From: a virus
Direction: 5' to 3' (one strand)
Virus record (IMG/VR): IMGVR_UViG_3300042558_005069
Coordinates: 1-64,000 of that record
Length of the DNA stretch: 64,000 nt
The position numbers and the translations under genes are program-made. Below the pieces are notes generated by a model that saw only the letters and a program-made list of their open reading frames with translations, searched no databases and was not told where the DNA came from. The stretch's first letter is position 1. Every line of letters begins with the position of its first letter. Positions 1 through 60,407 of the stretch are shown in pieces.

Positions 1-1
1 A

Positions 2-100
2 CCCCCCCCCAACAACCCGGGGGGGGGGGACTCTCAGTACTGGTGGGTACTGAGAGTCCCTAACTAAAGGATAATGCAGAGGGTTACATTATCCTTTAGT
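2..100. repeat. Three abutting inverted repeats: C9/G11 tracts, 14-bp stem GGGACTCTCAGTAC (27-40/47-60), 14-bp motif-A stem (63-76/87-100)
   Basis: Read directly from the sequence; lies just downstream of the stop of the minus-strand gene 109..573. Confidence 0.9.
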
Positions 101-25582: not shown

Positions 25583-26263
25583 TCATGGAGCGATTCTCCC
25601 ATTTTTGATCCAAGCCTCGTGCGTTATTGGCATTTGACTTTCAAATATTCGCTCTACTTCTTTTGCGCATTTACGTATGTCAACTTGCGCTGATTCGGCG
25701 GTTCTGAGTGAAAGAAAGTTCATTAGTGCTCGCGCGTTTACCGTCCAGTAGAACTGCGTGTACATAGAAACTGGGAGAACAGATCTGGCCAGCTCTTTCG
25801 CCACGCCCATTTCAAGTAGCTCCAGATATGAATTATATGCGGATATGTTGTTTTCTTCTATTATTTTTTTAGCCTTTTCTGCATCACTTAAGTCCATTTT
25901 TTCAAATGTATAAGAACCTGGTTTGCCTGTTTGCTTGCGGACGTCTTCCAGAAGTGGAGAAAAAAACTCGTTTGGGACCTCTGAGTAGCGGGCTGAGAAT
26001 TCATTAAAAGAACCTATCCTGTGGCGGAACCACTCTCTGGCTACGAAAATTGGGCATTTAATGTGGAATCTAAATGAGTTATGCTCAAACGGTGTGCCGT
26101 GACGCTCTCTCATTAAGAAATTTATTAACCCAACGGCTGAAGCATCCATATGCTCAGAACTCTTTGCAAAAGATACCCTTGCTGAATTTACTACCGAAAT
26201 ATCGTCTGCCATGAAGCCGTCTAGTCGCACGAAGCCGTATGTTTGATTTGATTTATTTTCCAT
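25583..26263 (-). CDS. thyX: FAD-dependent thymidylate synthase
   Basis: HGTPFEH, RHRxxSFNEFSARY, ELARxVLP, NARALMNFLSLR. Confidence 0.95.
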   Translation of the reverse strand: MENKSNQTYGFVRLDGFMADDISVVNSARVSFAKSSEHMDASAVGLINFLMRERHGTPFEHNSFRFHIKCPIFVAREWFRHRIGSFNEFSARYSEVPNEFFSPLLEDVRKQTGKPGSYTFEKMDLSDAEKAKKIIEENNISAYNSYLELLEMGVAKELARSVLPVSMYTQFYWTVNARALMNFLSLRTAESAQVDIRKCAKEVERIFESQMPITHEAWIKNGRIAP

Positions 26264-34592: not shown

Positions 34593-37500
34593 TTACTCTA
34601 AAAAATTAGATTCGTCAATGTAGACGACTCCACTATTGTAATCTTGATCACTCAATGATATTTCCTCTTCAAATCTACGAACTGGCACCCCGAGTTTCTC
34701 TTGCATTTCAAGCTGTTGTTCTGCGGAAATCTCATCATCATCGCGCAGTAAGATGTAAGCAATGTCGTCTTTTGTAACCCCGCTTTTACCATTCCCTGGG
34801 TGAACTTGGGCCTCTATGTAGTCAACTGCTGTTTTAATTTCTCCACCAAATATGTCATCATCTAAGTCTATGTACTGATCAGACATTGCCCTCATTCCAA
34901 ATCCTGGAGCATTGAATGATGACGCAGATGCCATTGTCGAAAGTGAGTCAACCTCAGAAACGGTAGATCTAGAATTTACGCTCGGCTTAAGAACTACAAG
35001 GAACTGCCCATACCCTAAGCCTATGTCCTCCATCTCTTCACCTATTCCTCCGTAGGTTGCGAAACCGTATATCGGACGCAGGCGAGGCTCCATCGATGGA
35101 TGATAGCCGAACATCGATACTTCTTGAGCAGCCCTGTAGCCAGGGTCGTATGCACCATTTGATCTTCCTGCTTCAAATTGAGAAAGTATTCTTCGATCGT
35201 CTCCAGTGCCATCAAAAATTTCTTCTAGCGCGTCCATGTCAAGAGCAATGACCACTCTGTCCTCTTTGAATGGACCTCGGCGCATTGTTCCGAATGTTTT
35301 AGGAACAAAATCAGAATCTGTTAGCTGGAAGTAATAATCTGTAAGTCTTCTAGTCTGATTTATCATTTTTTCGATTAGTGACGATACTGTAACTCCCAAT
35401 TCTTTAGCTTCTCTTTCTGCCCATAGCGTGCGCGTTGCAATAGTTGTTGCACGCTGGAGTAGTCCATTGGCAATGATGTCAGCTTCAAATTCGCGCAAGT
35501 CTGAATACTTTCTTTGCAATATTTCAAGCATTTTAATTTTAGATATCAATAACTGGCGCCTGACTTCACCAGTTATATCTGGAGTCCGAACGGAGGCATA
35601 AGGGTGTATTTGATTGTATTTGAAGTAAAATTTAAAATCTTTATTATTCAACAGTTCATCGATTAGTTCACCCATGGATTCGCCTATCTCCGGGTCTATT
35701 GTCTCGTTGAGTAGCCAAGAAAGTGGTCTTCCTTCGTTTTTTGCCACCTCTAAAGAATTTGTTGGTTTTCTGAAATCAGCATCTACTGATTTCTTACCTT
35801 CTTCAAGACCTAATCCAGCAATCACTCTTGCATTTGTATTCTTTATATGACTGTATATTTCACCAGATTTAAATCGGTTACGCCCAGTGTTTTCTCGTTT
35901 CCCACTGCCTGAATACTCATCGCTACCGCTAGATAGTCTTGCTTCTGGAAGGTCGTATGTTCCCCAGTCAACGTCTCCTGATATGAATTTTCTTTCAATT
36001 TCGGCAAACTTGTCTGATAGCGCAGAGGGCCCATTGGGAAGTTCATGTATCTGAGTAACAATTGCTTTTCTTTTTTTGCCGAGGGTTACGATCTCGGACT
36101 CATTTAGGCACCCCATGCCGGTAAATGGGTTGGCTAGAATTTCCTCTATGGGAATATAGGTGAAATATATGTGTGGAACTTCTTCTTCTACTCCGGCCAT
36201 GCGTAAATCTGCAAAATCAAAAGCCGTATTTCGGTTAGTGGACCAAGATGAAATCGGTCTACTTTCAATCGAAGCCTCGAATAAGAGTGGTTCATTAGTT
36301 TCTGGAATTTTCGTTATTCTTCTAGAATCGTAACCGGATTGTTCTACTGTCATAAGTGATCCACGATAAGCCGGGACATGTGTGATGCCTTTTGACTTAT
36401 AGTATTCCTGCGTTGACTGATACATCGATGAAATAAACTCTTGCAATACTTGCGCTTGAGAAGGGGTCAACTCTGGCGCAGAATCATATTTTTGTGATCC
36501 GTTTGAGATGATGTCTTCTTCTGCCAAGGTACGAAGAAATCCAGGCTTACTTAACGATAAAGCAGAAGATTGAAAAAGATCGGCCGTGGTTGCTGAAGGC
36601 TTTACTTGCCATCCTACCGCTTCATCCAGAGAGAACATCCCCCTTGCTACATGCTGTATTGCTAAAGACACTGGGTTTTCGTCATTTGCTGATATTGACC
36701 ATGAACGAATTAGTTCGGAAACAATTTGTTCCTTTAGTATATTTTCAAAATCAGAACTATCTTTTGAAATAATGTCTTGACCGAAGTAGCTCTTTATGAA
36801 AGTTTCTTGGTCAATAAACCCCGACAAATAATACCTATTTTCAGAAAGCGGGAACGGGGTCCCCTTCAACGGCAGTTCCCCATCGACGAATGCTTCCCAG
36901 AATTGATCAGCTTTGATTTTTCCGGTTTTCACGTATTGGTAAAAACCTAAATTTAACGCACTTGTGAAGTTTGTATTGTACATGAGTGAACTAAGCTGCT
37001 CAAAAAACTTAGGAAATTTTTCGTAGTTTTCTACAATCGAATCCATTAACTTAACGTCAACTTCTTCAGGATTGCCAGAAATTGTAGAATAAATTTTTGT
37101 CATTGCTTCCGTTTGAAAGTCAAAATAAAACTTTTTATTTTCCCAGTAGTTTATTGTTTCTAGTTTAGACACAACACTGTAGATCTCTTCGTCTACCCTG
37201 TTTCTGTATTCGTCTTCGCCCATATCTATAATTGGCTGAACAAATATTTCATGCAGCTCTTTTCTTTTTTCTAGGGTCAGATCTGTTACTTCGTCTACTC
37301 TTGTTTTCTCATTAAATATTTGTCCATCGGTGATATTCAACAAGAATTTGCCTGTTCCGCCATCTTCTACGTCAACCAGTATCTCAACTACTCTCTGAAA
37401 AGAGTCACCGTCCGTGATGAAGGGGAGTCTATCAAAATCTCTTGGATCATCAGAAAGAAAGTTTTGAATTACTGGCTTAGCTCTTCCTTTTTCAACAAAA

Positions 37501-40500
37501 GCGTCCACAATTTCACGCAATGAAACGTTCATTTGTCGAGAAATGTTTTTAGCTATAAAAGATTTTGCTCGAGACGCTGGACTAACTGCCATATCCATGT
37601 CTTGTTGTCTTGTAATTTTATGGATGTCGTCTAGCAAGTCTGAGTTTATGTCCCAAGTCGAAGCAGTAACTTGCCCATTATTTGTTTTTTGTGCTTTTAG
37701 CTTAGGAGATGCTCCTGGCTTGAAGAAAATCTGCCCATTATCGTCTTCGACCATGTATTTTGATTTCTTAGCCTCTTCCCCTGAAGAGAAACTGTCGCTT
37801 ATTTTTTCGAGGACTACGACATCTCGATCCATCATTCTTTTGCTGTATGGATTTTTTATTTGTCGTTTTTCAATCCCTGATACCTTGAACTTCCCTGAAA
37901 CAATGCCTTCCACAATCCCGTAATTTCCACCTTCGGCGCTTGGCTTGCCTCTTGCTGACAATCCTTGCTCGTCGAAAAAAATTCCTCTTGTATCATCGGG
38001 GAATTCAAATATAAACTTTTCAGGAATTGAACGAATAGCTGACAATTCATCGTACTCATATTTGATGGCGTCATTTATCCCGGAAGCAACAGCTGCTGCT
38101 CTAAAATTCAGTTCTTCTCCAATATTTACTACTGACCCAACATCGGGAGTCAGTCTTGCCACCCTGTATGTCCTGTGGCCGATAGGAGGGGCAGACTCAA
38201 GACCATTCCTGATTATCTCAGCAGCTCGATAAAGGGCGGCGTCTTCGGGTACATTCTCTAGATTTTCGACCTCACCAGCTAGATGTCGACTAATCTTCCT
38301 ACTTTCAGCAAAGCTACTGCGCCACAAATTGAGAGTATCTCCCAATTCGGTATCACTCGGTACAATGCCAGGATGCCAGTGTGAGCGAATTAAGAAATTG
38401 CTCATCCTGTTTCTGTCGTTCAGCTTGTCAAGGGCATCTGAAGAACTGTCCAACTCTCCGCTTGTCGGCACGTATCTATACTGATTGCCATATCCAGACT
38501 CTTTTCTAAAATGCATATTTGGGAATCTTGCGATCATCACACTCATTGGGAATTCGTCTTTGAACCATGCTTCTGGAATAGAGATGCGTTCCGGGCCAGT
38601 TCCGGCAGATCTAATTTGGCTTCGGGCTGAGTCGGGATCTACAATTTCGTTTATGTTCGACAATATCTCGCCACCAGAAAAAAAAGCAGTTTGACCGGAC
38701 TCGTCAACTGGGGTTGAATAATCGTTTCTAGATGTTGAAAATCTGTCATTATTTGCAATTCTTAGAATTGCGTTTTCGCTCAATAGGTAAAGAAGCGTAT
38801 CTTGCTGTAATCGATCGTCTTCTCCGATTCTGAATATATCTTTTATTTTAGGGTCAGATGTGAAAGCCGTTATACTTTCTAACTTTAATTGCGTGCTTCC
38901 AGAGTGCGGTCTTGAATCAACTCTTAGATCAAAAGCAATGTCGCGCATTTTTAGATCTATATTTTCCTTTGATCCATCTTCCCCACCGGGGAGTATCGGC
39001 GTTACGTATTTTGAGTTACCGGTCGCTTGTACTCCTGCTTCCCCGAGAGCTTCGTTTACAAGTCTTTGTCGCTCTTTCATAGTTTCGGCAAAAGCTGATT
39101 CCCAAACTTGTTGCTGTTCTGGAGTCCACTCATATTGGAGACCTTCAGGTTTTTCAACCTTAGAGTAGTCGGCTACGGCTGGTAGCTCGATTACGCGATA
39201 GGTGCCTGCTGAAAATAAAATTCCATCTTCGGGTGGGGGCGTTAAGTAGCTGTCGACGACATACAGGTTCTCTAGAGACCCGGGATTATCCTCGTTTACT
39301 TTTTTCATCTGACTTACGATTGCATAACTTTTTCCCTGTGCGCTGGGCCTGTACAGATGACCTTGAACAAGGTGATTTAATGAAAAATGGACACTGTGCC
39401 TATTCGTCCTTAGTGGCTCCCCGGTATATGGGTTTATTACGACTTGTTGAGTATCTTGATTTACTACATCGTAATCGCCATTTGGGTAAATTCTTAAATT
39501 TCCATCTTTGTCAATTTGTGGCTTATGAACAGTTTCATGGACCAGGAATAAGTCATCAAATTTTAGTATCCGAGTTTTGGACTCATATTGATCTTTTTCA
39601 GTGGTAACCATGATATCGCCTGCGCGGTAGTTATTTACCCACCATGCATCGTCTCTATCTTCCGGTCTTACTCCTCCAAGGGAATACCTAGGGCTTGAAC
39701 TGAAGAAATTTTCTCTTCTGTCTGTGAATATTTTTTCAGCAACGGCACTCAGTCTTTCAAGTTCTGCTAAGGCATCCCTGTCTCCACGGGCCGCAGCATA
39801 CAGTAAGGCTGATGTTCTTGATTCCCGAGAACGGTCTTCATCTACTTGCGCAACTGTGGCCATAAACCAAAGACGAGCGAATTCTCGCCCCTCCTTTGAC
39901 TTTGGTGAGGTATTGGAAATGACATATGGGTTCACTGGGAGTCGAAGCACACCTGGGGCATCAATTGAATCTCTTGTGAATGCTATTTGTTTTCCATTTA
40001 TGTCGTGAACTGGAACAAGTGTATCTGTCGTTTCGTTTCTGTCAGGCCTTGCGTATATCTTTCCTTTTACTTCTGCCACTGGATCTTTGGATACAGTTCC
40101 TATTCTGTCGATATCGTTTGCCCCAGAGGAGAGCCGCATGCGTTGTTCTCTAAATGAATTGCGTTGTCTAGTTGAAACCCCAGACCTCTTTGAAGGTCTT
40201 CTTAGAACTATCCTATCCCGTGGGCCAAGATAAACCCCACCCACTGTTCTGCCGGTAATTTCATCTATTCTTCTATCCGATCCGCTTGCAAAATTTCTTC
40301 TTTCCGCGCTGCCTTCTTCGTATTCGTCATGGGTTATAAAGCGGTCGGATGTATTTGCAATTCTTGCTCGATGATTGTCCGACAATACTGCCCAACTAAT
40401 AGGGTCGACAATTAAATTCCTCAATTTGTCTTCGTCGTCTGTGACTTTCTCTATGTCATGGGAGTTTGAGTTGAAATGTCCCCTGGCAGTGACCATTAAT

Positions 40501-43500
40501 TCAGTTGCGATTTGTCCGACCTTGAGGTCCTGATGATCATTCGAGCTCGATCCTCCGGTCTCTCCACCATCAAACGAGTTAGTACCGAAAGATAAAAGCA
40601 ACTGTCTCAACTCTTCATCTACATTTTCAGATGACTCGTTATTTTCAAGTATTGTTGCTCCACGTAATACGAGTGGTTTTTCTGGTTCTGGGACAAACCA
40701 TGAATCAATAACGAACAAGTTTTCAAGAGCTCCTGGATTATCCTCTATAACACTTCTTAAAGGAGTTACGATAATATTGGATTTAGATTTTCTTTCCCTG
40801 AATGAATGTCCCCTGGCTAGGTGATTCAACGTAAAGTGAATGGTTTGTCTGTGATGCTTATATACACCACCATCTTCCGTTGGGATATAACCATAGTCTC
40901 CGGCTGGTCTAAGAAGTACGTTTCCAGCTTCATCTTTTACTATGTCGTATGTTGTTTCATGAACGACATAAAGATCATCTATTGAAAGATTTCCTATACC
41001 TTTTTCATCTGCGGTAGCTTGAAAATACTTTATTTGCGCTGGAGAAAGACGTCCTTCTGTTTGTATTCTTCTTTGTTCTTCTATTAGAAGCTCGCCCTTT
41101 TTCGCAAGATCTTCAAACTCCAACATCGAATCTGCGTCTCCACGCATTCCAGCATAAAGTAAAGCGTCTACATATGTTGATGCTTGGTCCCCGGAACTTT
41201 CGTAACGAGCAGCTCTTGCCGCTATCCAACGGATGGCCGTGTCGCGCCCCTCTGCCGAAGTTGGCGAAAGGCCACTTATGACGTACGGGTTTAATGGAAT
41301 AATCTTTATTTCTTTATCAGTAATTTGGCTCTTTATTTTTTCAGGAATATGACCAAAATAAATTTTATCGTTCCCTATGGCGTGAACTTCTCCACGCATG
41401 CGGACATCTTTACCATTTCTGTCCTGATAAACATTAGACAATAACGTTTTTTGAGTCTGTTTATTAAAAGCTCCAGCTGGGTATACTTGAGCTGGGCCTC
41501 CTGAAGAAAATCTTAAATCTTCGTTTTTGAGTATCTCTCTTCTGTTTGGTCCAAGCATCTCCATTGCAAGAGAGGAAGCTGGCCCGGATCGATCACGACC
41601 CTTTGGATTATTAACAAGCCTAAGTTTTGAAGAGGAGCTTTGATTTGTATTCTGTGGAATCCGACGTTGACGTTCAGCACCAGATGACAAACGCATATCT
41701 ATGACTTTTCTAATTTGACTTCTAGCTACGTCGATGCGGTCTCTGGCTGCGCTTCTTAAATTTGTACCAATAGAAGTTCTTTTGATTAACCTATCTCTCT
41801 CTTCTATTTCTTTCCACGGCGTCTCTCCGTCCCGCAATCCAAGAAATGCACGAGCATCATCTCGTAGTTTTTTTGTAATCCATCTTTCTTGAGCGGTTGG
41901 GTCTGGATGGAGAACCGCTACTGCTCCTTCTGCCAATGCCTCTATCAGGTTTGTGTTCCCGTAACTGTGCGCCGTGCTTGCAAAAGGAAGATTTAACCAT
42001 TGCTCGTCAAATCCTGCTCCGTTCGGGTCTTTGGCTAGCGTGCTCTTTTGAATACTCTGTTGATCTATTAATGGTTCGAAACTATAATATTCTTCCGCGA
42101 CACGTAGACCTCGGTAGCGTGCCGCTCTTCCCTCAGCGGTGCCGTAGTCTCGAATGTACTGACGACCCGTCGCTTTTAGGTCTCTGTAAGGAAGTGCGGC
42201 TGGGTTAGTAGCAAAAACCCCTCCCAGCTCAGCCTCAATCATTGCCCGCATATGTATGTAATGAACGAGTTCGTGTTTAAAAACAGCAGATATAGATCGA
42301 TCCATCACTGTTGTGCTGCCAATACTGAATTCCGAGGTAAGATCTATTTCTCCCTGAGATGTTCTTCCGGTTTCAATTGCTTCCCACGCAGCAACAATGT
42401 TCAGAGTTGGGACAAGTTGATCCAGCCAGGCTGCAGAAAGCGAATCATCTGTCTGAATGTTTTTTACTATAGGGGGAGACCCGAATGTCTCCATTAGCCA
42501 TTTAAGCTCAGGACTCGCATCGAGTGAAGCTTCAACAGCTTTTCTCAAAAGATTTACATTTTGCGGAGAAAAATCAATTTCTGTCTTGCGCGATTTTAGC
42601 AATTCAATTATTAGTTTTCTCATTAATGTTCGTATTTCTTCTGGTGAAGCCCAATTGCTCGGAGGAATTGGAAACAAATCAAAAATAATTTCCATGTATT
42701 CATCTTCACTAGAAGGCACCATTAAGTTTGCAATCTGACTTGATGATAGCCCCTGCAAGAAACCAGGAGTTGATATTCTTAGTTCAACACCCATCTCCGT
42801 TATCTGCCCATATCTATAATCCATAGATTGATGCCTCTTGAGCTGCTCTAACTCATCGCGACGCAGTGGCTTAAGGAGAGGATCAATCTTTATTATTGGC
42901 CTGTCTCTATCTGGTTTTGCAGGAGGTATTCCGACATCCAGTATTGGTCGGTCATCGTCCCCCGAGGAAAACCTTGCAGTTTCACTTTCAAAATTTATAA
43001 ATCTTCTCTTAGCTGCGTCAAATTCTTCACGTGCAGTTTGAAAATTCTTTGTTCTCTCGTCTAGGAAATCTTCTCTTTGGGCCCTGTCTAGAATTCTGTT
43101 ATCCCAACCGCGACTTTCTGCCTGATTAATCATCGCGTGCATGACCATTCCGGCAGCAGTTGCATCCTGTTCCGCTGAATGATGCCTATCGAGGCGCACT
43201 TCAAGATATTCGGCTAGAGCGCTTAGTGTAGTAGATGCGACTCTTGTGTCTCCGCGGATGACTGATGGACCATCTTTGTTTTCTTCAGAATATTTTGGAA
43301 GAACCATTTGAGCCATATCAAGAGAATCAATGTATCCAGATGGACGCCACATAATCCCGGCCTCCGCGAGAGCATCCTCAAGGACGTTTTTGTCAAATAT
43401 TGCGTTTTGTACGCCCATTATTGCGCCCGGGCCAGCGAACTCAGCGACCATGCGATGAGCGTCCTGAATACTCATCTGCTGTGCAAGCCACTCATCGGTA

Positions 43501-46500
43501 AGCGGCTCTCCGTCTGTTCTGTAAAGATTCAACCTTGACCACTCTCTCAATGGTTCGGTCGGATTCATAAACAAATTTAATTTGTCTATAACTTTTCCAC
43601 CTCTCATCTTCACAAGAGCTATTTCTACTGGCTTACCATTGCTCGCACGTTCCCTGAAGCGGTCAAAGTCAATACCTGTAGTTTCGTAATCAATAAAAAT
43701 TATGTCTCTATTGTTAAATATTTCTCTTAGCTCGCGCCAAGTTTTTGCTTCACCAAATATGAAGTCAGCCTCACCTATAAACGGTCCGTAACTTGGTTCG
43801 CGGGGAAATGACGGCATTTTTACTTCACCACTGCTAAGGCGTCGGGGGTTATCGTCTGGATCATAACCAAATTCGAGAAGAGAATTTCCTTCAGTGAAAA
43901 GGTGCTTTGCTTTTACTCGCTGACTTACTATTCTGTATTTTCCTTTTCCTCCCAGATTGGAGTCTCCGTGAAGTTTTGCGTATGACCGCAATGGGCTAAC
44001 CCAGTCGCCAGCGTTTATTTTTAGATTTTTGTCAATGTGCTTTGCATTCCTAAGCATTTCTATTTCTCGACTAATTTCGTCATAGTATTCGTTTATGTCT
44101 GATATATCTGCAGAAACATACTTTGGAACTCGGCCATATTGTAAAATATGTGATTTCTGTGTTTCTAGTTCTTTTATTCTCTCATTGGGGAGTAAAGGAA
44201 CAGCACGATAGACCGTAACTAGCGCTTCAGGCTTGCCCTTGATTTGCTTTATAATTCTAAGTGCTTCTGGAGCCAACGGGTCGGTACTGGCGTAGAGGGC
44301 AGCACCGTTTGGCCCATAGACTTCTTCTGGATACATTCCGTCAGCAATATTGTGCATCGGAGCGCCACTGTTCCTATCGGGAGCCTGGTGGAAACCTCTG
44401 TAGTCTTCGTCCTTACTAAATGGAACATCGGAAGTACCGCTTGAAAATCTGTCAGACCCAAGTTTGCTATCGAAACGCCTATCAGTCACATTAATTAACG
44501 CCGAGCGACGAGGCCCCTTTACGGGACCAGTCCCTCCAGTTGCGGCCTTCCACCATTTGTCGCCATCGTCTGTTGTCGCTCCCGCTGAAATCTCATAAGT
44601 TGGCATACTGATGCGTAATGCGTCAAGGAGGGCCGACCCAATCCCCATCCTTTTAAAATCTTCGCCTACTTCTATCATCGCCACAACAGCAGTACTGTCG
44701 ATACTTTCGGAATTGTAATCAATGTATCCTGCTAGCTTCCCACTTTCATCGAAAGCAGCTAAGTATCCGTTGTACTGATCACGACCGGGGGAGTCACCGC
44801 CATGAGACAAAGTAAACCTTTTGCCCCCAACATTGAATCCGACCGGGTCATCAAACGGTTTATCTTTTCCTAGCCGCTCAATTTCTATCGTTACTTTCTG
44901 GCCTGAGGAAAATTTATTATCGTGATCCTTAACTGCTGATGAAAGAAATTTTATTGGGCTTATTTCCCCCGATGCTAGCGGAAGTTTGTTTTTAGTTGCA
45001 GCGTTCCGTGAGTTCATTTCGCTTGTAGACCATTCGTCGACTACTGACGCAGGGAGCCGATCAAGCAATAGCTTTAAGCGGAGATCTTGATTTTTTTGAT
45101 ATCGCTCCTTATCTATTACTCTGCGATAGCCAACTTCTATGCCATTTCCGTTATTCAATTCCGAAAAGAAAGTAGATAAAGATTCTTTATTTGCTTTTGA
45201 CAGCATCTCTTCAGGATTCTTAAAGGATGAATAAGTCATTCCGTTTTCAGTGTAGTAACCGCTTAGGAGTTGTTCTCTTTCTGTTTTTGTAAAATATTTT
45301 TTTGTTGCGGTGTCGTTGTTTTCTGCCAAAAGCTGCCTATGCAGCGCCCCGACCATTTTTGATCTAGAGGCGGCCCCATTCCACTCAAAACCGTTCATGC
45401 CCCAATAGGTTGCTCCGTTTGAGGAATAGGCATCTCCAAATGGAGAGTCCTTCACTATGTCGGATCTGCCGGTGAGACTTATTGAATCAACTTCTAGAGC
45501 TTTCCATATATTTTCAGAGTAAGCCATGAAAGAAGTGCTAATCCCTGAATTCCTAAGCTCAGGCTTTACGAAAATTTGGTTTAAATCAACCGAGAGACCG
45601 GTATTTGTAATTGATAATTTAAAGCTAGCCGTACCAACGTCTGACAATTCTTGAACATTTGTTCCAGCTACATTTTCTTGAGGAAAACTTAATTTTACAT
45701 CAACATAAACGGGCAAAGATTCTCCCGATGCAACAACGCTCGCTCCGTAGTCCACGCTGCTTACTTGAGATGATAAAGGCAATTCTTCTTGTGCGAATAT
45801 GTTTGATCGAGAAACATCGATCAACAATTCTGATCCAAGATTGAACCTCTCTCCACTAGAGCTTTCTACTACAACATTATTTCTTAGAGGAATAGAAATA
45901 TTGTTAAATAATTTATTCAGTGATTGCAAAAAGTTGTCTTTTAGGCTGTCGTCATCGGCAAATTCTAAGTATGAAAATCTTTCTGGCTGCTCAATATTCT
46001 TGTTTTCTGGAGTAAATAATTTTCCAGAACGCCATTGAATCGATGGTAAAACAAAGTTGACAATCATGTCTCTTGTGTCGAAAGCGTTGGTAAGTTTTTC
46101 ACCATCTAGTTTTTGTCTTTCGACTTCTGTTTCATAATTGGCACCAGAAGAAAAGGTGTCCGAGCCACCATCGACGGAGCTAATTTCTCTATCTTCAAAG
46201 TCTATTGAAGTATTTTTATCTAAATTATAAAACTCGTGAAGGTTAGAAATTGTATTTAGCAAACCATTTAATGGTCGATTAGCAGGGGTTGCCTCTGCGA
46301 ATGCTCTACCGTCATCGCTAAGTGCGTTGCTGTGTTGAAGGTTGAATTCTGGAAAAGCTTCTCTTTGCGTGTAGAACATCTCTGCCGCAATACCGCGCCT
46401 GCGGTGACCGCGTCTTGTCTGGATTTCCAAAACTTCTAGCTGGCCATCATTTGGAGCCCAAACTGACATCCTTGCTATGACTGGTGCGGTTCCTTTTCCC

Positions 46501-48287
46501 GTAAGGCTCCGAAGTACGTCCTGGTCATCGACATCATTTGGACCAATTGGTGATTTCTTTTTATTAAAAGGGTTTTCGCCTTGTTCGTCAAATATTTTTG
46601 CAAGAGAATTGCGTTCTTTTTCAATGTCTGACTCCAAATAGGATACGACATCTCCATTTTGCGTGACGATTATTCTATATTCAGTATCTTTATTTTTAAC
46701 TTTTTTTGAAGCGAATATATCTCCATAGTCGTGAAGATTCAGTGGTGACAGTTGCTCCATACCGCTGGAAAACGCACCAACAAGCTCTCTGTCGTTACTT
46801 AATCTGCGCTCGTACCCAATTGTTACGTTTTTCTCCTGAAACAAACTAGTTGCCTGTTCAAAAGCAAGAAGTTCTTCCGCGCTTGAATCTGTTTCAAACA
46901 CAGAATTACCATCTACTCTTCTTTCTTCTATTAGGAGAGATATCCGTTTTCTCTCTTCTTCGCTAAACCAATTTTGCGTTTGGTCGTCAAGTCCATCTTT
47001 AATTACGCGAAGAAAATCTTGTTTTGCTTTTTCTCCAGACCACGTAAATCCATTTTTTGGCCAGTGCGTTGCCCCAATTCGATTTCCCTCTTTGTCGGAC
47101 AACCCGCCCGTATATATTCTTTTTGCGTCAATCGCATTATATATTTTTTCATTACTTGCATTAAATAAGCTACCTATGCCAAGACCCTGTGATGGCTCGT
47201 TTAGAAAGAAAGTATCGTGGATAACTGTTATTCCAGAGTCTTTTTCTCTAGTATTAAACATTATTGTCCTGGAAGATGAACCAAACTGGATTCGGTCAAG
47301 TTCCGGAGTTCCTTCTGGGAGTGCATAAGCGTTTTCGAGCATTTCTTCTGGCACTCCGGCTTTCGCCAACCGATCCATTGCTTCCTCTGACGGAGCCAAC
47401 CTCATGCGAAGCTTTATATTCATAAATGTTTGTTTTTCGGAATCTTCATCAAAAATTGTTGTATATAGCTGTTCTTCTGCCTGTTCATTAATATCATTTA
47501 AATTTATGTCCGCTAGCTCAATATCCCAGCCCTTATATTTATTACCTGGCCGGACAGAAATGCGAACCGTTTTTCCTAAATTTATTTTTTCACCGTTTTT
47601 GGCGGTAACTACAATGTCTTTTTCCAGTTCTATTTCGCTATTAAAAATTTCCGCGAGCAAATCATGTATTCTTTTTTTTGCTTCCAACCGCTCCGGTGAG
47701 TCGGCCAGTTCTTTCGTGTCTTCGTCAAAAATGTCTTTGATTGTCGTGAATTCATCTTGCTCAACAAGCAAATCACTTCTTAGTAGTTCTTTTAGTTCTT
47801 CTATTTTCTGTAATTTTTCTTGCGTTAATTCGGGCCGGGAATCAACAAGCTCTTGATATGTTGCTCCAGAAGAAAAAGTGGTTGACCTATCTGGAGATTC
47901 CTCACCGCCAAAAAGCTGACTTCCTGACGATGGTCTGGTTTTTTTGGGGGAAAGTTCCGAATCCCTAGTGCTCTGTTTTGGTTTTTTACCCTCGGATGCA
48001 GTGCCAACATATATTGGCTTTGTTGTTCCTTCGTCAGCCCAGCCGTCACCGTCTGGGTCTCTTCTTGAGCCAGTCGGCTTTCTTGTGCCGGGCTTACCTC
48101 CGGTGGGTAGGTCTATGTCTCCCTGGCTGCGCCCGCCGCGACGACGGCCAAGGCTAGGAATCCCGGAAAGCCTGTTTGAAGCATAGGAAGCAAGACGTCG
48201 ACCAAGAGCTTTTTCCTCAAGGTCTGGTTCGCGGCCTTTGCGTGATTCATCAAAGGGGATGAGAAATTCATTTTCTTCACTTGACAT
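34593..48287 (-). CDS. Giant multidomain (polyvalent) protein: 4x GNAT, ART-like domains, DEDDh exonuclease, zincin, duplicated unknown domain, DUF3626-like C-terminus
   Basis: 4564-aa ORF. GNAT motifs QGLGIG, RRRGIA, RNSGIS, KRMGIG; DEDDh DYETTG..NAIFD..HSAEQD; zincin HELVH..EALAE; ART YRG..SSWST..ESE; C-terminal RPIYG..YIEAQVH. Confidence 0.9.
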   Translation of the reverse strand: MSSEENEFLIPFDESRKGREPDLEEKALGRRLASYASNRLSGIPSLGRRRGGRSQGDIDLPTGGKPGTRKPTGSRRDPDGDGWADEGTTKPIYVGTASEGKKPKQSTRDSELSPKKTRPSSGSQLFGGEESPDRSTTFSSGATYQELVDSRPELTQEKLQKIEELKELLRSDLLVEQDEFTTIKDIFDEDTKELADSPERLEAKKRIHDLLAEIFNSEIELEKDIVVTAKNGEKINLGKTVRISVRPGNKYKGWDIELADINLNDINEQAEEQLYTTIFDEDSEKQTFMNIKLRMRLAPSEEAMDRLAKAGVPEEMLENAYALPEGTPELDRIQFGSSSRTIMFNTREKDSGITVIHDTFFLNEPSQGLGIGSLFNASNEKIYNAIDAKRIYTGGLSDKEGNRIGATHWPKNGFTWSGEKAKQDFLRVIKDGLDDQTQNWFSEEERKRISLLIEERRVDGNSVFETDSSAEELLAFEQATSLFQEKNVTIGYERRLSNDRELVGAFSSGMEQLSPLNLHDYGDIFASKKVKNKDTEYRIIVTQNGDVVSYLESDIEKERNSLAKIFDEQGENPFNKKKSPIGPNDVDDQDVLRSLTGKGTAPVIARMSVWAPNDGQLEVLEIQTRRGHRRRGIAAEMFYTQREAFPEFNLQHSNALSDDGRAFAEATPANRPLNGLLNTISNLHEFYNLDKNTSIDFEDREISSVDGGSDTFSSGANYETEVERQKLDGEKLTNAFDTRDMIVNFVLPSIQWRSGKLFTPENKNIEQPERFSYLEFADDDSLKDNFLQSLNKLFNNISIPLRNNVVVESSSGERFNLGSELLIDVSRSNIFAQEELPLSSQVSSVDYGASVVASGESLPVYVDVKLSFPQENVAGTNVQELSDVGTASFKLSITNTGLSVDLNQIFVKPELRNSGISTSFMAYSENIWKALEVDSISLTGRSDIVKDSPFGDAYSSNGATYWGMNGFEWNGAASRSKMVGALHRQLLAENNDTATKKYFTKTEREQLLSGYYTENGMTYSSFKNPEEMLSKANKESLSTFFSELNNGNGIEVGYRRVIDKERYQKNQDLRLKLLLDRLPASVVDEWSTSEMNSRNAATKNKLPLASGEISPIKFLSSAVKDHDNKFSSGQKVTIEIERLGKDKPFDDPVGFNVGGKRFTLSHGGDSPGRDQYNGYLAAFDESGKLAGYIDYNSESIDSTAVVAMIEVGEDFKRMGIGSALLDALRISMPTYEISAGATTDDGDKWWKAATGGTGPVKGPRRSALINVTDRRFDSKLGSDRFSSGTSDVPFSKDEDYRGFHQAPDRNSGAPMHNIADGMYPEEVYGPNGAALYASTDPLAPEALRIIKQIKGKPEALVTVYRAVPLLPNERIKELETQKSHILQYGRVPKYVSADISDINEYYDEISREIEMLRNAKHIDKNLKINAGDWVSPLRSYAKLHGDSNLGGKGKYRIVSQRVKAKHLFTEGNSLLEFGYDPDDNPRRLSSGEVKMPSFPREPSYGPFIGEADFIFGEAKTWRELREIFNNRDIIFIDYETTGIDFDRFRERASNGKPVEIALVKMRGGKVIDKLNLFMNPTEPLREWSRLNLYRTDGEPLTDEWLAQQMSIQDAHRMVAEFAGPGAIMGVQNAIFDKNVLEDALAEAGIMWRPSGYIDSLDMAQMVLPKYSEENKDGPSVIRGDTRVASTTLSALAEYLEVRLDRHHSAEQDATAAGMVMHAMINQAESRGWDNRILDRAQREDFLDERTKNFQTAREEFDAAKRRFINFESETARFSSGDDDRPILDVGIPPAKPDRDRPIIKIDPLLKPLRRDELEQLKRHQSMDYRYGQITEMGVELRISTPGFLQGLSSSQIANLMVPSSEDEYMEIIFDLFPIPPSNWASPEEIRTLMRKLIIELLKSRKTEIDFSPQNVNLLRKAVEASLDASPELKWLMETFGSPPIVKNIQTDDSLSAAWLDQLVPTLNIVAAWEAIETGRTSQGEIDLTSEFSIGSTTVMDRSISAVFKHELVHYIHMRAMIEAELGGVFATNPAALPYRDLKATGRQYIRDYGTAEGRAARYRGLRVAEEYYSFEPLIDQQSIQKSTLAKDPNGAGFDEQWLNLPFASTAHSYGNTNLIEALAEGAVAVLHPDPTAQERWITKKLRDDARAFLGLRDGETPWKEIEERDRLIKRTSIGTNLRSAARDRIDVARSQIRKVIDMRLSSGAERQRRIPQNTNQSSSSKLRLVNNPKGRDRSGPASSLAMEMLGPNRREILKNEDLRFSSGGPAQVYPAGAFNKQTQKTLLSNVYQDRNGKDVRMRGEVHAIGNDKIYFGHIPEKIKSQITDKEIKIIPLNPYVISGLSPTSAEGRDTAIRWIAARAARYESSGDQASTYVDALLYAGMRGDADSMLEFEDLAKKGELLIEEQRRIQTEGRLSPAQIKYFQATADEKGIGNLSIDDLYVVHETTYDIVKDEAGNVLLRPAGDYGYIPTEDGGVYKHHRQTIHFTLNHLARGHSFRERKSKSNIIVTPLRSVIEDNPGALENLFVIDSWFVPEPEKPLVLRGATILENNESSENVDEELRQLLLSFGTNSFDGGETGGSSSNDHQDLKVGQIATELMVTARGHFNSNSHDIEKVTDDEDKLRNLIVDPISWAVLSDNHRARIANTSDRFITHDEYEEGSAERRNFASGSDRRIDEITGRTVGGVYLGPRDRIVLRRPSKRSGVSTRQRNSFREQRMRLSSGANDIDRIGTVSKDPVAEVKGKIYARPDRNETTDTLVPVHDINGKQIAFTRDSIDAPGVLRLPVNPYVISNTSPKSKEGREFARLWFMATVAQVDEDRSRESRTSALLYAAARGDRDALAELERLSAVAEKIFTDRRENFFSSSPRYSLGGVRPEDRDDAWWVNNYRAGDIMVTTEKDQYESKTRILKFDDLFLVHETVHKPQIDKDGNLRIYPNGDYDVVNQDTQQVVINPYTGEPLRTNRHSVHFSLNHLVQGHLYRPSAQGKSYAIVSQMKKVNEDNPGSLENLYVVDSYLTPPPEDGILFSAGTYRVIELPAVADYSKVEKPEGLQYEWTPEQQQVWESAFAETMKERQRLVNEALGEAGVQATGNSKYVTPILPGGEDGSKENIDLKMRDIAFDLRVDSRPHSGSTQLKLESITAFTSDPKIKDIFRIGEDDRLQQDTLLYLLSENAILRIANNDRFSTSRNDYSTPVDESGQTAFFSGGEILSNINEIVDPDSARSQIRSAGTGPERISIPEAWFKDEFPMSVMIARFPNMHFRKESGYGNQYRYVPTSGELDSSSDALDKLNDRNRMSNFLIRSHWHPGIVPSDTELGDTLNLWRSSFAESRKISRHLAGEVENLENVPEDAALYRAAEIIRNGLESAPPIGHRTYRVARLTPDVGSVVNIGEELNFRAAAVASGINDAIKYEYDELSAIRSIPEKFIFEFPDDTRGIFFDEQGLSARGKPSAEGGNYGIVEGIVSGKFKVSGIEKRQIKNPYSKRMMDRDVVVLEKISDSFSSGEEAKKSKYMVEDDNGQIFFKPGASPKLKAQKTNNGQVTASTWDINSDLLDDIHKITRQQDMDMAVSPASRAKSFIAKNISRQMNVSLREIVDAFVEKGRAKPVIQNFLSDDPRDFDRLPFITDGDSFQRVVEILVDVEDGGTGKFLLNITDGQIFNEKTRVDEVTDLTLEKRKELHEIFVQPIIDMGEDEYRNRVDEEIYSVVSKLETINYWENKKFYFDFQTEAMTKIYSTISGNPEEVDVKLMDSIVENYEKFPKFFEQLSSLMYNTNFTSALNLGFYQYVKTGKIKADQFWEAFVDGELPLKGTPFPLSENRYYLSGFIDQETFIKSYFGQDIISKDSSDFENILKEQIVSELIRSWSISANDENPVSLAIQHVARGMFSLDEAVGWQVKPSATTADLFQSSALSLSKPGFLRTLAEEDIISNGSQKYDSAPELTPSQAQVLQEFISSMYQSTQEYYKSKGITHVPAYRGSLMTVEQSGYDSRRITKIPETNEPLLFEASIESRPISSWSTNRNTAFDFADLRMAGVEEEVPHIYFTYIPIEEILANPFTGMGCLNESEIVTLGKKRKAIVTQIHELPNGPSALSDKFAEIERKFISGDVDWGTYDLPEARLSSGSDEYSGSGKRENTGRNRFKSGEIYSHIKNTNARVIAGLGLEEGKKSVDADFRKPTNSLEVAKNEGRPLSWLLNETIDPEIGESMGELIDELLNNKDFKFYFKYNQIHPYASVRTPDITGEVRRQLLISKIKMLEILQRKYSDLREFEADIIANGLLQRATTIATRTLWAEREAKELGVTVSSLIEKMINQTRRLTDYYFQLTDSDFVPKTFGTMRRGPFKEDRVVIALDMDALEEIFDGTGDDRRILSQFEAGRSNGAYDPGYRAAQEVSMFGYHPSMEPRLRPIYGFATYGGIGEEMEDIGLGYGQFLVVLKPSVNSRSTVSEVDSLSTMASASSFNAPGFGMRAMSDQYIDLDDDIFGGEIKTAVDYIEAQVHPGNGKSGVTKDDIAYILLRDDDEISAEQQLEMQEKLGVPVRRFEEEISLSDQDYNSGVVYIDESNFLE

Positions 48288-53423: not shown

Positions 53424-55349
53424 ATGGCATTTATCGAAGATAGCTTTGTAAAAGATTACTTGACACAGAAATCTCCGTGGGGATTTAACGGAATGGGCGA
53501 AATAGTTTTTTTGCGAACATACAGCCGCAAGAAAAATGATGGAACAACAGAAGTCTGGCCAGAGACGATCCAGCGCGTTGTAAACGGAGCAATTGCTATC
53601 GGAGTTCCCTACACGCAGGATGAGGCTGAAAGGTTGTTTGATCACATGTTCAACCTTCGCTGCTCAATGAGTGGAAGAGCGCTATGGCAGCTAGGAACGC
53701 CAATGGTTGAAAAGTTTGGCGGAGCTTCTTTAAATAACTGTTATTTTACTAATATCGAAAAAGTGGAAGATTTTGAATTTTTGTTTGAGTATTTAATGCT
53801 GGGTGGCGGTGTCGGTTTTTCTGTAGAGCGCTCAAAAATACACGACTTGCCTAAAGTGAAAAATGCAGTAGTAATCACTCACGAGCGATCAAACGACGCT
53901 GACATAATTGTTCCCGATAGTCGAGGTGGATGGAAGAGACTCCTCCACAGCGTTTTAAAATCTTATTTTGAAACAGGAAAATCTTTTACATATTCGACAA
54001 TTCTGGTGCGCGAATACGGCGCTCCGCTTAAGGGATTTGGCGGCACAGCGTCTGGTCCGGGTGCTTTGATTGACGGAATTGCGGATATATGTAAAGTCCT
54101 AGATAATAGAGCTGGAAAAAAATTACGCTCTATTGATGTCCTCGACATCTGTAACATCATTGGGCGCATCGTTGTCTCGGGCTCATCAAGAAGATCAGCA
54201 CAAATCTCAATGGGTGATCCGGATGATGCTTTGTTCATTAGGGCAAAGAACTGGGCGTCGGGCTCGATCCCTGCATGGAGAGCAAATAGCAATAACTCGC
54301 TCTATGCTGATGGGTGGGACGAGATCCCCTCGGAGCTCTGGAAGGGCTATGACGGTACGGGGGAGCCATATGGCCTTGTGAACCGAAAGCTCGCACGTCG
54401 CTATGGGCGGTTAGGTGAAGTCAGGGTAGATAATAGTATTGAGGGCTTCAACCCATGCGCCGAGATAGGTCTAGCTGATGGAGAATCATGTAATTTGGCG
54501 ACTGTTTTCCTGCCGAATATCGAATCCATAGAGCAATTCAAGGAGATATCCCGTCTTCTTTATCTAACGCAGAAGCAGATTACTCGTTTGCCGTATCCGT
54601 ATGAAAAAACAACACAAATTGTCCGTCAGAATGCAAGACTTGGACAAAGCGTGACAGGGATTCTTCAATCAACAGCAGAACAGTTGTCTTGGCTGTCCGC
54701 TGGATACGTAGCCCTAAGAGAGCTAGACAAGAAGTATTCCGCCGAAAACGGGTTCCCGGAGTCTGTTCGTATGACGACCGTACAGCCCTCTGGGACGCTC
54801 TCTCTGCTTCCAGGGGTAACCCCCGGCATACATCCGGCCTATGCTCCGTATTATATCCGTCGCGTTCGTTTTGGCTCCAGTGACCCTCTAGTCGATGCCT
54901 GCCGCAAGCGTGGATACAAGGTGATTTGGGATATCGGAATCGATGGACGGGAAGACCATACTCGCTATGTGGTCGAGTTCCCTTGCCGGTCTCCAGAGGG
55001 TTCTGTTCTCGCAGTTGACATGACAGCGGTTGAGCAGCTCGAATGGGTGAGGAAGATGCAAACAGAGTGGGCCGATAATGCAGTTTCCGTGACTGTTTAC
55101 TACCGCAAGGAAGAGCTCCCGTTAATTAAAGAATGGCTTGAAAAGAACTACGACAAGAGCGTTAAATCCGTTTCTTTCCTGCTGCATAGCGATCATAATT
55201 TTTCCCTTCCTCCCTACGAGGAAATTACAAAAGAATCCTATGAAAAACTTTCAGCGCGGGTTGACATGTCCATTCCCCTTGTCCAGTCAGCATTTGACGG
55301 AGAAATAATGGTGGATGATTGCGCTACTGGAGCTTGCCCTGTAAAGTAA
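53424..55349 (+). CDS. nrdJ: Class II (B12-dependent) ribonucleotide reductase
   Basis: RTYSR, LNNC, GGGVGF, RRSAQI, NPCAEI..CNL, TVQPSGT, C-terminal CATGACP; no small subunit nearby. Confidence 0.93.
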   Translation: MAFIEDSFVKDYLTQKSPWGFNGMGEIVFLRTYSRKKNDGTTEVWPETIQRVVNGAIAIGVPYTQDEAERLFDHMFNLRCSMSGRALWQLGTPMVEKFGGASLNNCYFTNIEKVEDFEFLFEYLMLGGGVGFSVERSKIHDLPKVKNAVVITHERSNDADIIVPDSRGGWKRLLHSVLKSYFETGKSFTYSTILVREYGAPLKGFGGTASGPGALIDGIADICKVLDNRAGKKLRSIDVLDICNIIGRIVVSGSSRRSAQISMGDPDDALFIRAKNWASGSIPAWRANSNNSLYADGWDEIPSELWKGYDGTGEPYGLVNRKLARRYGRLGEVRVDNSIEGFNPCAEIGLADGESCNLATVFLPNIESIEQFKEISRLLYLTQKQITRLPYPYEKTTQIVRQNARLGQSVTGILQSTAEQLSWLSAGYVALRELDKKYSAENGFPESVRMTTVQPSGTLSLLPGVTPGIHPAYAPYYIRRVRFGSSDPLVDACRKRGYKVIWDIGIDGREDHTRYVVEFPCRSPEGSVLAVDMTAVEQLEWVRKMQTEWADNAVSVTVYYRKEELPLIKEWLEKNYDKSVKSVSFLLHSDHNFSLPPYEEITKESYEKLSARVDMSIPLVQSAFDGEIMVDDCATGACPVK

Positions 55350-56649: not shown

Positions 56650-57048
56650 TTATTTAAACTCGGACCAAGTTTTGTTTCCAACCCCAAAGTACTCTCGAGC
56701 GTAACCTGACTCTATGATATCCAAATTCAAGCAAGCAGTTTTTACATCATCAATGTCTTCTGAGGAAAATATCCTTGCGAGAACCCGTCCGTATTTGTCA
56801 TTTTTGTCTGGGATTGTATTCACGTAAACCCATTTATGCTTGGAAATCCAGTCTTCTGTGAATTTCTTTGCGCTCAGACCCATCTGCTTTTCGGCTAGGT
56901 CTTTTGTTCTTGTCTCGGGCGTGTTGACGCCATATAGGCGAACTCTAATTTTGTGGTGAATATTGAAACCAAGATCAATCATTAGATCGACAGTGTCTCC
57001 GTCTACAACCCTCAGTACGGTAGCTCCGTACCAAAAGCGAGCACTCAT
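56650..57048 (-). CDS. Thermonuclease (SNase-like)
   Basis: VVDGDT, RVRLYGVNTPE, DKYGRVLA. Confidence 0.9.
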   Translation of the reverse strand: MSARFWYGATVLRVVDGDTVDLMIDLGFNIHHKIRVRLYGVNTPETRTKDLAEKQMGLSAKKFTEDWISKHKWVYVNTIPDKNDKYGRVLARIFSSEDIDDVKTACLNLDIIESGYAREYFGVGNKTWSEFK

Positions 57049-59021: not shown

Positions 59022-60407
59022 TTACGCAGTAGGAGCGGCGTCGAATTCAACCTTGACGAATGCTTCTGGACGCTTTACCGCAAGGGCGAGGCGTTGTTCG
59101 GCGAGAATAACAATCGCGTTGCGGATGAAGAAATCGCTGTGCTGCTCACTGATGCGGATAGATGCCTGCTCGCGGTCATAAAGCTGAGCACCGGTGCCAA
59201 ACGCGCCGACCAAAGCCATACCTTCCTGCATTGCTGGAGTATCAACAAGTGGCATTCTCCATACTCTTGGCTCGCCACCCATCGCAACAGAAACTGCGAT
59301 GAGGTACTGGCCATTGACGTCTTTTGTCAATTCGATGTCTTCCCAATCATTTGGGTGAACAACGATACCGCTTGGCTCGTAGTAAGCCAAGAAGGAGAGT
59401 GTAGCCGCACGGCGAATTGCGTCAGCTTTGGTGTCACCAGCCGTAACGTTTGCAACTCCAGCAACACCGTCAGACCAAGCGTATTCCTGGACTCCTGGGG
59501 TGTTCATCACGCCGAGCAAGTTTTCGCCCAGTCCGTCACCGTTGAGGATTTGATTGTCCTCAAGGAGGCGCAAGCCGTACATAAGCTCGTTGTCGATGAT
59601 TGAGCGAAGCTGTGGTTCATCGGCAAGAACGTTGCGGTGTGCTGCTTCCCAGTGAGCGAGTGTTCTAATTGGGGCCTGTTCACCAACGAACTGGAATGAA
59701 GATTGTGGCTTCAACCCAAATACTCCGCCAACTCTTTCAGCGACAGTAGACGCTGCGTTGTTGGTTGAGTAGGTGCTTGCAGTTACGCCTGGAGCAGAAA
59801 TCGTCGTAAAACCGATTTGACGGAAGTACTCAATAACTGCTGCTGTTGTAGTCCGAACAGGGAACAAGTCACGAACGCGCTTTGTGCGTGTTGGTGGTGT
59901 TACCATCGGATCGCGCTGAACCGTACCGAAAGAGCCGAGACGGCTGTCAGCTACGGTTGTTGAAGGCAAGCCAGAGAAGACATCCTTCACATTGTAGCCA
60001 CTCAAAGAGATGTTTGCCATCCATGGAGCTGCCATGTTTGCGCCGTTACGGCCACCAGCAAGTGCCTTGAACTCTACTGAGTCAAGGAACATCTGACCGA
60101 TGCTCTTGATCTCGCTTGAGGTCAATTGGCTGATTTCTGATGCTGCAGCTGAATAGCTTGATGCGACCGACTCTGATGCTGGCTGCGAAGACCAGCTGTC
60201 AACGTCACCCATTGTCTGCAAGTCAGAAAGGAGTGATTTAATTTCCTTAATGTCACGCATGTTCTTGTCGAATGCTGTTTTTTGTTCTGAAGAAACAACA
60301 ACTGTTCCTTCTTCTACCTTGAATGAGTCAGCAATGGCCTTATTGTCAGCCATTTTAACTCTGAGAGCTGATTGCAGCTCATCAATTCTTCCATTGTCTT
60401 GCGACAT
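59022..60407 (-). CDS. Major capsid protein, HK97 fold
   Basis: N-terminal coiled delta domain; EDNQILNGDG...NL.G, VHPNDW..I...KD.NG.Y, F.RN...ILAEQRL..AV.RPEAF. Confidence 0.93.
   Translation of the reverse strand: MSQDNGRIDELQSALRVKMADNKAIADSFKVEEGTVVVSSEQKTAFDKNMRDIKEIKSLLSDLQTMGDVDSWSSQPASESVASSYSAAASEISQLTSSEIKSIGQMFLDSVEFKALAGGRNGANMAAPWMANISLSGYNVKDVFSGLPSTTVADSRLGSFGTVQRDPMVTPPTRTKRVRDLFPVRTTTAAVIEYFRQIGFTTISAPGVTASTYSTNNAASTVAERVGGVFGLKPQSSFQFVGEQAPIRTLAHWEAAHRNVLADEPQLRSIIDNELMYGLRLLEDNQILNGDGLGENLLGVMNTPGVQEYAWSDGVAGVANVTAGDTKADAIRRAATLSFLAYYEPSGIVVHPNDWEDIELTKDVNGQYLIAVSVAMGGEPRVWRMPLVDTPAMQEGMALVGAFGTGAQLYDREQASIRISEQHSDFFIRNAIVILAEQRLALAVKRPEAFVKVEFDAAPTA

Follow-up and report, generated by a model that had tools for sequence, protein, structure and literature searches.

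The locus described here raises the question of why a phage should encode, in one unbroken open reading frame (ORF), a 4,564-amino-acid (aa) protein in which the same short peptide returns again and again along the chain. The DNA analysed (the window) is the first 64 kb (64,000 nucleotides) of a 104,099-bp contig, IMG/VR record IMGVR_UViG_3300042558_005069, and the ORF, at 34593-48287 on the minus strand and open throughout, encodes the protein referred to as P0001. A preliminary description of the window had proposed a precursor that is cut at the recurring peptides into separate enzymes. The first part of that proposal, a modular precursor with interchangeable modules, was upheld: homologs keep the motif at the joints where the modules have diverged to ~25% identity and differ from one another in module order, the motif stands in disordered, hydrophilic flanks, and the peptides are specific to lineages. 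As to what the peptide does, we tentatively put first, though short of calling it probable, that the junction peptides are cutting sites for the Peptidase_S78 (S78) prohead protease of the phage acting on capsid-packaged cargo. Cleavage, the scissile bond, the identity of the protease, packaging and ejection are what we infer in this best-supported reading.

All 14 copies of [FL][SA]SG listed for P0001 in the preliminary description were found at exactly the residues given, as were the variants FFSG, FKSG and PSSG, and the nucleotide coordinates given for five copies were correct on re-reading of the sequence (Table 1). Counts were compared with 2,000 composition-preserving shuffles of P0001, none of which reached the observed number for any form of the motif: 14 copies of [FL][SA]SG against 0.52 expected, 12 of [FL]SSG against 0.31, and 7 of R[FL]SSG, the form with a preceding Arg, against 0.02. 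Codons differ between copies, as had been claimed, with Ser written as TCT, TCC, TCA, TCG, AGC and AGT, and with Leu, Gly and Arg codons mixed too. Since both Ser codon families and the other codons vary among the 14 copies, selection acts on the peptide, and a DNA repeat as the origin of the motif was ruled out. A logo built from 74 sites in seven giants gave [R>S,K]-[F/L]-S-S-G-[A/R/G], with polar or acidic flanks. Some copies are paired 17-56 aa apart (1104/1126, 2200/2260, 2666/2719 and 4118/4139); if cut, each of these pairs would set free a short spacer peptide. Homologs show good conservation of one such spacer, the 56 aa at 2204-2259.

The motif is almost confined to giant genes. Two others lie on the same contig outside the window, encoding proteins of 2,524 aa (G2524) and 3,207 aa (G3207), and both carry the motif well above expectation (Table 1). 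No similarity among the three giants was detected by BLAST; together they occupy ~30% of the 104-kb contig. In the remaining proteome of 21,824 residues a single copy was found, in a doubtful 87-aa ORF, and the strict motif was not present in any credible other gene of the window or genome.

Copies had been claimed to fall outside the modules, and where this was testable the claim was supported. In an AlphaFold2 (AF2) model of residues 1100-2270, calculated from an 8-sequence alignment (mean predicted local distance difference test score, pLDDT, 48), the GNAT module, the DEDDh module and the first half of the HExxH module were folded, and 7/7 copies were in coil with pLDDT <50. About 52% of that model has pLDDT <50, and the chance of all seven copies lying there is ~0.01. 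In a second AF2 model, of the HExxH module with its flanks (18 sequences, mean pLDDT 63), copies 1773 and 2260 were likewise in low-confidence coil. Motif flanks are hydrophilic, with a Kyte-Doolittle value of -1.19 vs -0.58 at random positions (0/2,000 random sets were that low). Conservation across six homologs is 0.75-0.90 for the four motif columns and 0.51-0.68 for the flanks, and at most sites an S-S-G or S-G core does not vary in homologs down to 45% overall identity. P0001 was also aligned with 143 related giant ORFs, and 42% of the ends of BLAST high-scoring segment pairs lay within 15 aa of a motif, compared with 10% when motifs were placed at random (at most 35% in 1,000 trials). 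Indels were not enriched near junctions (p = 0.31). A search for stand-alone ORFs of relatives bounded by P0001 junctions gave a sole case, with its C terminus 12 aa past junction 1773.

This pattern bears on an alternative in which the peptide is left uncut and serves as a conserved hinge or docking element, bound by a partner or modified on Ser, so that the giant acts as one chain in the manner of the N4 virion RNA polymerase. A plain linker needs no four-residue signature held at such levels amid variable flanks, and the paired copies look like sites of spacer excision. The modules also appear, from their arrangement in homologs, to be tolerated in any order and in different carrier proteins, and the S78 module is a separate 802-aa ORF in one relative. 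On the other side, no cut has been observed, both the N4 polymerase and plasmid ArdC/TraC1 stay whole (PMC5512222), and all four junction variants described below contain Ser or Thr, which makes a Ser/Thr modification site conceivable. On balance an uncut chain is judged unlikely.

The count of about 12 modules in the preliminary description was roughly right; the names attached to them fared unevenly. The DEDDh 3'-5' exonuclease label was backed by Pfam RNase_T (aa 1530-1712, profile positions 1-160 of 164, 44.6 bits) and by PolC exonuclease chains in the PDB. Four GNAT acetyltransferases had been proposed, of which one reached the Pfam threshold (Acetyltransf_1, aa 1171-1224, 28.2 bits vs a cut-off of 20.7); the other three have only an R/Q-x-x-G-x-G/A/S-like string and no Pfam match. 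The zincin label is kept only as zincin-like: the HExxH is conserved and the zincin fold was matched at Z <=6.3, but P0001 gave no match to a Pfam MPTase family. Labels of ART modules were not borne out, since neither Pfam (at E <= 0.1) nor a profile search of the PDB gave an ART family; the homolog P0006 has Pfam ADPrib_exo_Tox at aa 315-475, with junction copies at aa 297 and 509 on either side. The DUF3626-like name for the C-terminal module was not confirmed, as Pfam gave nothing at E <= 0.1 and phrog_8314 was the only match. The PDB search, done with a profile of the six homologs, returned the exonuclease and a weak GNAT only, and module X had no usable match in the protein atlas. P0001 is a polyvalent protein by its GNAT and RNase_T domains above Pfam cut-offs, its conserved HExxH module and its phage gene context (capsid, portal, primase, WhiB).

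Homologs of 4,300-4,700 aa, at 44-93% identity, carry 15-17 motif copies each, and two proteins that share only 6-9% of P0001 still have 10-17. Homologs had been expected to keep the motif while swapping modules, and they do, in hundreds of related contigs from lake phages: the DEDDh module lies anywhere from aa 121 to 3145, and the HExxH module stands before or after it. DEDDh and X modules are also present in head-locus giants of other phages. Among homologs of the HExxH module at 21-30% identity, 13/17 have a junction copy on both sides. In IMG/VR the capsid protein was found on 321 contigs (68-83% identity in the 80 loci kept) and the exonuclease module on 116.

In more distant relatives FSSG is absent and the giants are punctuated by other peptides. 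One variant is [GS]-[IV]-[ST]-G-x-M-[SGA]; two more, [RG]-G-M-R-S-[RQ]-[ST], sometimes in tandem (GMRSRSGGMRSRS), and G-S-K-S-T-T, were found in IMG/VR relatives. For the two commonest junction types, at least three copies of one were present in 69 of 143 giant ORFs and of the other in 22, and no ORF had both. The 24 contigs fetched with two giant loci had the same type at both, 21 the commonest and 3 the second, with no mixing; two commonest-type loci in this set had 0-1 copies (truncated ORF). That each genome keeps to one code while close relatives have different ones points to a reader encoded by the phage and co-evolving with its sites, and the pattern of lineage variants, taken from comparison of sequences, fits such co-evolution.

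Proteins of the staphylococcal phage 80alpha are trimmed by the host Prp protease, and a host protease might in the same way cut the junctions of the giants. This would explain one code across unrelated giants of one phage, and nothing more specific speaks for it. Closely related phages (capsid proteins 70-83% identical), all from lake-type metagenomes, use four different junction peptides, however, which a phage-encoded reader fits better than a conserved host enzyme does; a host protease is considered highly improbable.

The phage-encoded reader tentatively preferred is the S78 domain at the N terminus of G3207 (aa 31-174), whose gene directly follows the portal gene. No head protease other than S78 was detected in the genome, and S78 was found in 5/5 relatives searched. 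S78 is in frame with ~3,000 aa of other G3207 modules, and an N-terminal S78 occurs in dozens of relatives too. Beyond S78, G3207 has ArdC-N and MPTase-PolyVal (117 bits) between junction copies at aa 720 and 1094, followed by a P-loop and a UvrD-like helicase. Relatives led by S78 and read far enough usually have their first junction at ~aa 640-720 (up to ~870), after a protease-led N-terminal module; in one relative the S78 module is the separate 802-aa ORF, compared with a junction at aa 720 in G3207. Right after the S78 domain some relatives have V-F-A-S-G-P-M, where G3207 has P-S-G-P-M; in another lineage the residues there are Q-G-G-M-R-Q-S, a string similar to the junction peptide of that lineage. 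A tblastn search with the S78-led N terminus in cultured phages returned ArdC-type pieces only.

A possible second substrate is the major capsid protein, which has V-F-S-G at aa 143-146. The HK97 maturation cut K103↓S104 (arrow, cut bond) was projected through alignments of HK97 chains to capsid aa ~147↓148, ~2 residues from V-F-S-G, and by a rough post-hoc estimate from residue frequencies the chance of such a four-residue string that near is ~3%. Proteases of the assemblin fold cut (V/L/I)-x-A↓S. By analogy, F-S-S↓G and V-F-S↓G would share the shape of assemblin sites, with a hydrophobic P3, a small P1 and a small P1', and this likeness is offered as a lead only.

A number of observations weigh against cutting by S78 in the capsid. 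No cleavage or virion data were found for the phage or any relative. None of the capsid, scaffold-candidate and portal proteins carries the strict motif; the capsid site is only a relaxed match, and relatives of all lineages have V-Y-S-A there whatever their junction peptide. Lineages with FSSG, ISGxM, GMRS and GSKSTT have S78 domains that are 69-82% identical, so that either the specificity of S78 is broad or there is another reader. The P0001 gene sits among replication genes (primase, WhiB), outside the head module, and each giant has at least one HExxH module, as self-processing would predict. The copy at aa 2200 lies at the end of a predicted long helix and not in plain coil, and both AF2 models are low to middling in confidence, with the mean pLDDT values given above.

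Self-processing would mean that the junctions are cut by each giant's own HExxH module, in cis or in trans, after translation or ejection and with no capsid step. HExxH is present in all three giants, at aa 2005 (P0001), 596 (G2524) and 941 (G3207, Pfam MPTase-PolyVal), and in 38/39 complete ORFs of at least 900 aa with at least three junction copies, vs 4/17 without such copies, an association confounded by protein length and shared descent. All 18 homologs of the P0001 module, at 25-30% identity, keep its H, E and H, and a downstream E..AEG is also conserved. This type of module (HE[WY]GHW) was seen only in FSSG-using giants and evolves fastest, at 25-31% identity where the DEDDh module of these proteins has 39-54%. 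In fold comparisons it was best matched by sequence-specific zincin endopeptidases, with modest Z (top 6.3); Foldseek gave nothing at E <= 0.001. A gene among replication genes suits action inside the infected cell, and peptidase processing of polyvalent proteins has already been proposed (Iyer et al., 2017, PMC5512222). Against this, the HExxH modules of the three giants have no BLAST similarity, and at least eight unrelated HExxH families occur, several per giant, all of which would have to share one specificity and change it in step. The HExxH of G3207 belongs to a complete ArdC-type module that elsewhere is a stand-alone antirestriction protein, and the AF2 model with flanks placed no junction in the HExxH active site. 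Cutting by the HExxH modules ranks as a minor possibility.

Two further arrangements of HExxH were noted. G2524, encoded at the head locus, has no Pfam or PHROG match; its motif-free first ~1,300 aa hold HEFAH at aa 596, and its three junctions follow. In P0008, an HExxH-bearing motif-free N-terminal region similar to that of G2524 is fused onto P0001-type modules.

Hints of packaging come from the N-terminal leader of P0001. Among 1.8 billion proteins, this stretch (the first ~100 aa) was found in only 44 cluster representatives, nearly always at residue 1 of a large protein (30+ giants) and nearly always with the first junction after it, at ~aa 100-140. Internal copies of the leader were found inside S78-led giants, in 5 database proteins and 7/64 IMG/VR relatives, at ~aa 380-470 or 540-650, where they directly precede the first junction of the protein that holds them. 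Its occurrence inside S78-led giants ties the leader to a head-assembly polyprotein. The largest leader-bearing relative, P0022 (Logan contig), is a single chain of 6,526 aa with five HExxH motifs and 15 junction copies. In phage SPN3US, gp245 cuts at A-x-E and removes propeptides of 111-254 aa from ejection proteins, and T4 propeptides target proteins into the prohead (PMC10052503); by analogy, the leader resembles both. A polyvalent protein of 2,811 aa has been detected in phi24B virions (10.64898/2026.04.10.717836).

If the S78 protease does act on packaged cargo, the three giants (4,564, 2,524 and 3,207 aa) would enter the procapsid, P0001 aided by its ~100-aa N-terminal leader. The protease would cut after the second Ser of the junction, F-S-S↓G, and likewise at V-F-S↓G in the capsid protein. 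P0001 would be divided into ~12 separate enzymes plus short spacer peptides, and the pieces would stay in the head, be ejected with the DNA and act on the next host.

The contig has the gene set of a tailed phage, with a WhiB-like regulator, primase, ribonucleotide reductase and ThyX, and an HK97-type capsid protein 46% identical to Gordonia phage capsid proteins. It belongs to an uncultured lake phage, the host of which is probably an actinobacterium. The stretch was near-complete in 20 lake-water metagenome DNA runs from 2018-2024, with no RNA run among the holders, and a protein identical to P0001 was found on 11 contigs, the longest of 150 kb. A megablast search of the giant gene against 50,697 phage records gave no match. 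No terminal repeat was found and relatives reach 137-170 kb, so the 104-kb record is probably incomplete. At the contig start (window 1-60), runs of C9 and G11 are followed by a perfect hairpin-like palindrome. G+C is ~0.47-0.53 left of ~18 kb, a part with many short ORFs in mixed orientation, and ~0.40-0.44 across 18000-64000.

Next to the capsid gene, a 247-aa protein encoded just upstream (60567-61310, minus strand) is a scaffold candidate by position; its sequence contains two DUF3721 repeats and matched neither scaffolds nor proteases. Directly downstream (57048-58920, minus strand) are a TauD/TfdA-family dioxygenase (189 bits) and a DUF6321 protein, an unusual site for an oxygenase. Auxiliary genes encode a NodU/CmcH-like carbamoyltransferase, a ThyX-type thymidylate synthase and a ribonucleotide reductase (19613-21073, minus; 25583-26263, minus; 53424-55349, plus, respectively). 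Coordinates of the giants, their junctions and modules, and the capsid site are collected in Table 1.

Table 1. Positions of the giant genes, of the junctions and modules of P0001 and of the candidate capsid site (window numbering unless marked; all on the minus strand)
Feature	Position	Strand	Basis or remark
Giant ORF P0001	34593..48287	-	4,564 aa; putative polyvalent effector polyprotein; homologs P0002-P0008
N-terminal leader, aa 1-118	47934..48287	-	basic, disordered-looking; conserved at N terminus of related giants; followed by PSSG 119 and FSSG 138
Junction FSSG, aa 138	47865..47876	-	motif scan
Junction FSSG, aa 506	46761..46772	-	motif scan
Junction FSSG, aa 712	46143..46154	-	invariant across 6 homologs
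Double junction LASG 1104 + FSSG 1126	44901..44978	-	18-aa spacer; pLDDT <50
GNAT acetyltransferase module, aa 1130-1280	44448..44900	-	Pfam Acetyltransf_1; folded block in AF2 model
Junction RFSSG, aa 1281	44436..44447	-	motif scan, AF2 model
Junction RLSSG, aa 1484	43827..43838	-	motif scan, AF2 model
DEDDh 3'-5' exonuclease module, aa 1488-1772	42972..43826	-	Pfam RNase_T; PolC exonuclease chains in PDB
Junction RFSSG, aa 1773	42960..42971	-	column conserved in 18 divergent modules
HExxH (zincin-like) module, aa 1777-2199	41691..42959	-	HELVH at aa 2005, nucleotides 42261-42275
Double junction RLSSG 2200 + RFSSG 2260	41499..41690	-	conserved 56-aa spacer
Module X, aa 2264-2665	40293..41498	-	paralog of X'
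Double junction NFASG 2666 + RLSSG 2719	40122..40292	-	motif scan
Module X', aa 2723-3201	38685..40121	-	paralog of X
Variant junction FFSG, aa 3202	38673..38684	-	F, S and G invariant in homologs
Junction FSSG, aa 3500	37779..37790	-	motif scan
Double junction RLSSG 4118 + RFKSG 4139	35862..35936	-	motif scan
C-terminal module, aa 4143-4564	34596..35861	-	sole match phrog_8314 (function unknown)
V-F-S-G, aa 143-146 of major capsid protein (gene 59022-60407)	59970..59981	-	at projected maturation cut
G2524	genome 65210-72784 (outside window)	-	2,524 aa; 3 motif copies vs 0.29 expected
G3207	genome 74635-84258 (outside window)	-	3,207 aa; 4 motif copies vs 0.30 expected

Polyvalent proteins were proposed by Iyer, Burroughs, Anand, de Souza and Aravind (2017) to be processed by peptidase domains and delivered with the DNA (PMC5512222). 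Like them, P0001 combines GNAT, nuclease and zincin-like domains in one chain, and G3207 combines ArdC-N, MPTase and helicase. Unlike in that account, where no recurring junction peptide was found and assemblin-like peptidases are always C-terminal, S78 is N-terminal here and three giants share one code, which differs by lineage. Neither in PMC5512222 nor in later literature was a junction peptide found described for polyvalent proteins.

The closest likeness in processing is to the prohead proteases T4 gp21, phiKZ gp175 and SPN3US gp245, which cut at L/I-x-E, S/A/G-x-E and A-x-E, respectively (PMC10052503, PMC5694885). There, too, a short recurring peptide is found in head and ejection proteins, N-terminal propeptides are removed, the protease cuts itself and the cargo is ejected. 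Those enzymes trim propeptides from separate proteins, whereas here chains of 2,500-4,600 aa would be split into about a dozen enzymes, the protease is of the HK97-type S78 family, and cleavage is deduced from sequence. T4 Alt and the internal proteins are packaged in the head by an N-terminal targeting peptide that the prohead protease removes (PMC10052503), but these, like phi24B gp47, are single proteins without the internal junction sites of P0001. Herpesvirus assemblin shares its fold class with S78, and its maturation and release sites have the shape of F-S-S↓G and V-F-S↓G; its substrates are scaffold proteins, whereas here they would be enzyme polyproteins, with Ser at P1 and Gly at P1'.

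RNA-virus polyproteins (3C/3CL and NS3 sites) offer the other parallel, as one precursor with a short recurring site at domain borders, read there by a virus-encoded protease whose preferred site varies by lineage. A tailed phage with double-stranded DNA and ordinary expression does not need a polyprotein for expression as RNA viruses do, and the purpose of a phage polyprotein is likely to be co-packaging or co-delivery.

Polyvalent proteins are widespread in phages and plasmids, and their route to working enzymes has been only a proposal since 2017. The junction peptide predicts exact neo-termini, which makes the question of processing directly testable. If the reading is true, it would supply a rule by which thousands of giant phage ORFs that lack annotation could be divided into functional units, show how capsids get loaded with enzyme cargo, provide natural pairs of linker and protease for engineering phage cargo, and extend prohead-protease biology from the trimming of propeptides to the dicing of enzyme polyproteins. 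The widest version of the idea is put forward with slightly more reserve than the cutting sites themselves: a large family of lake phages may follow a true polyprotein strategy on double-stranded DNA, in which ~30% of the coding capacity would be three cargo polyproteins with a private cutting code, one phage protease would read that code and also mature the capsid, the code would drift by lineage and cassettes would move freely between carriers, a plug-and-play loading of the capsid with host-takeover enzymes.

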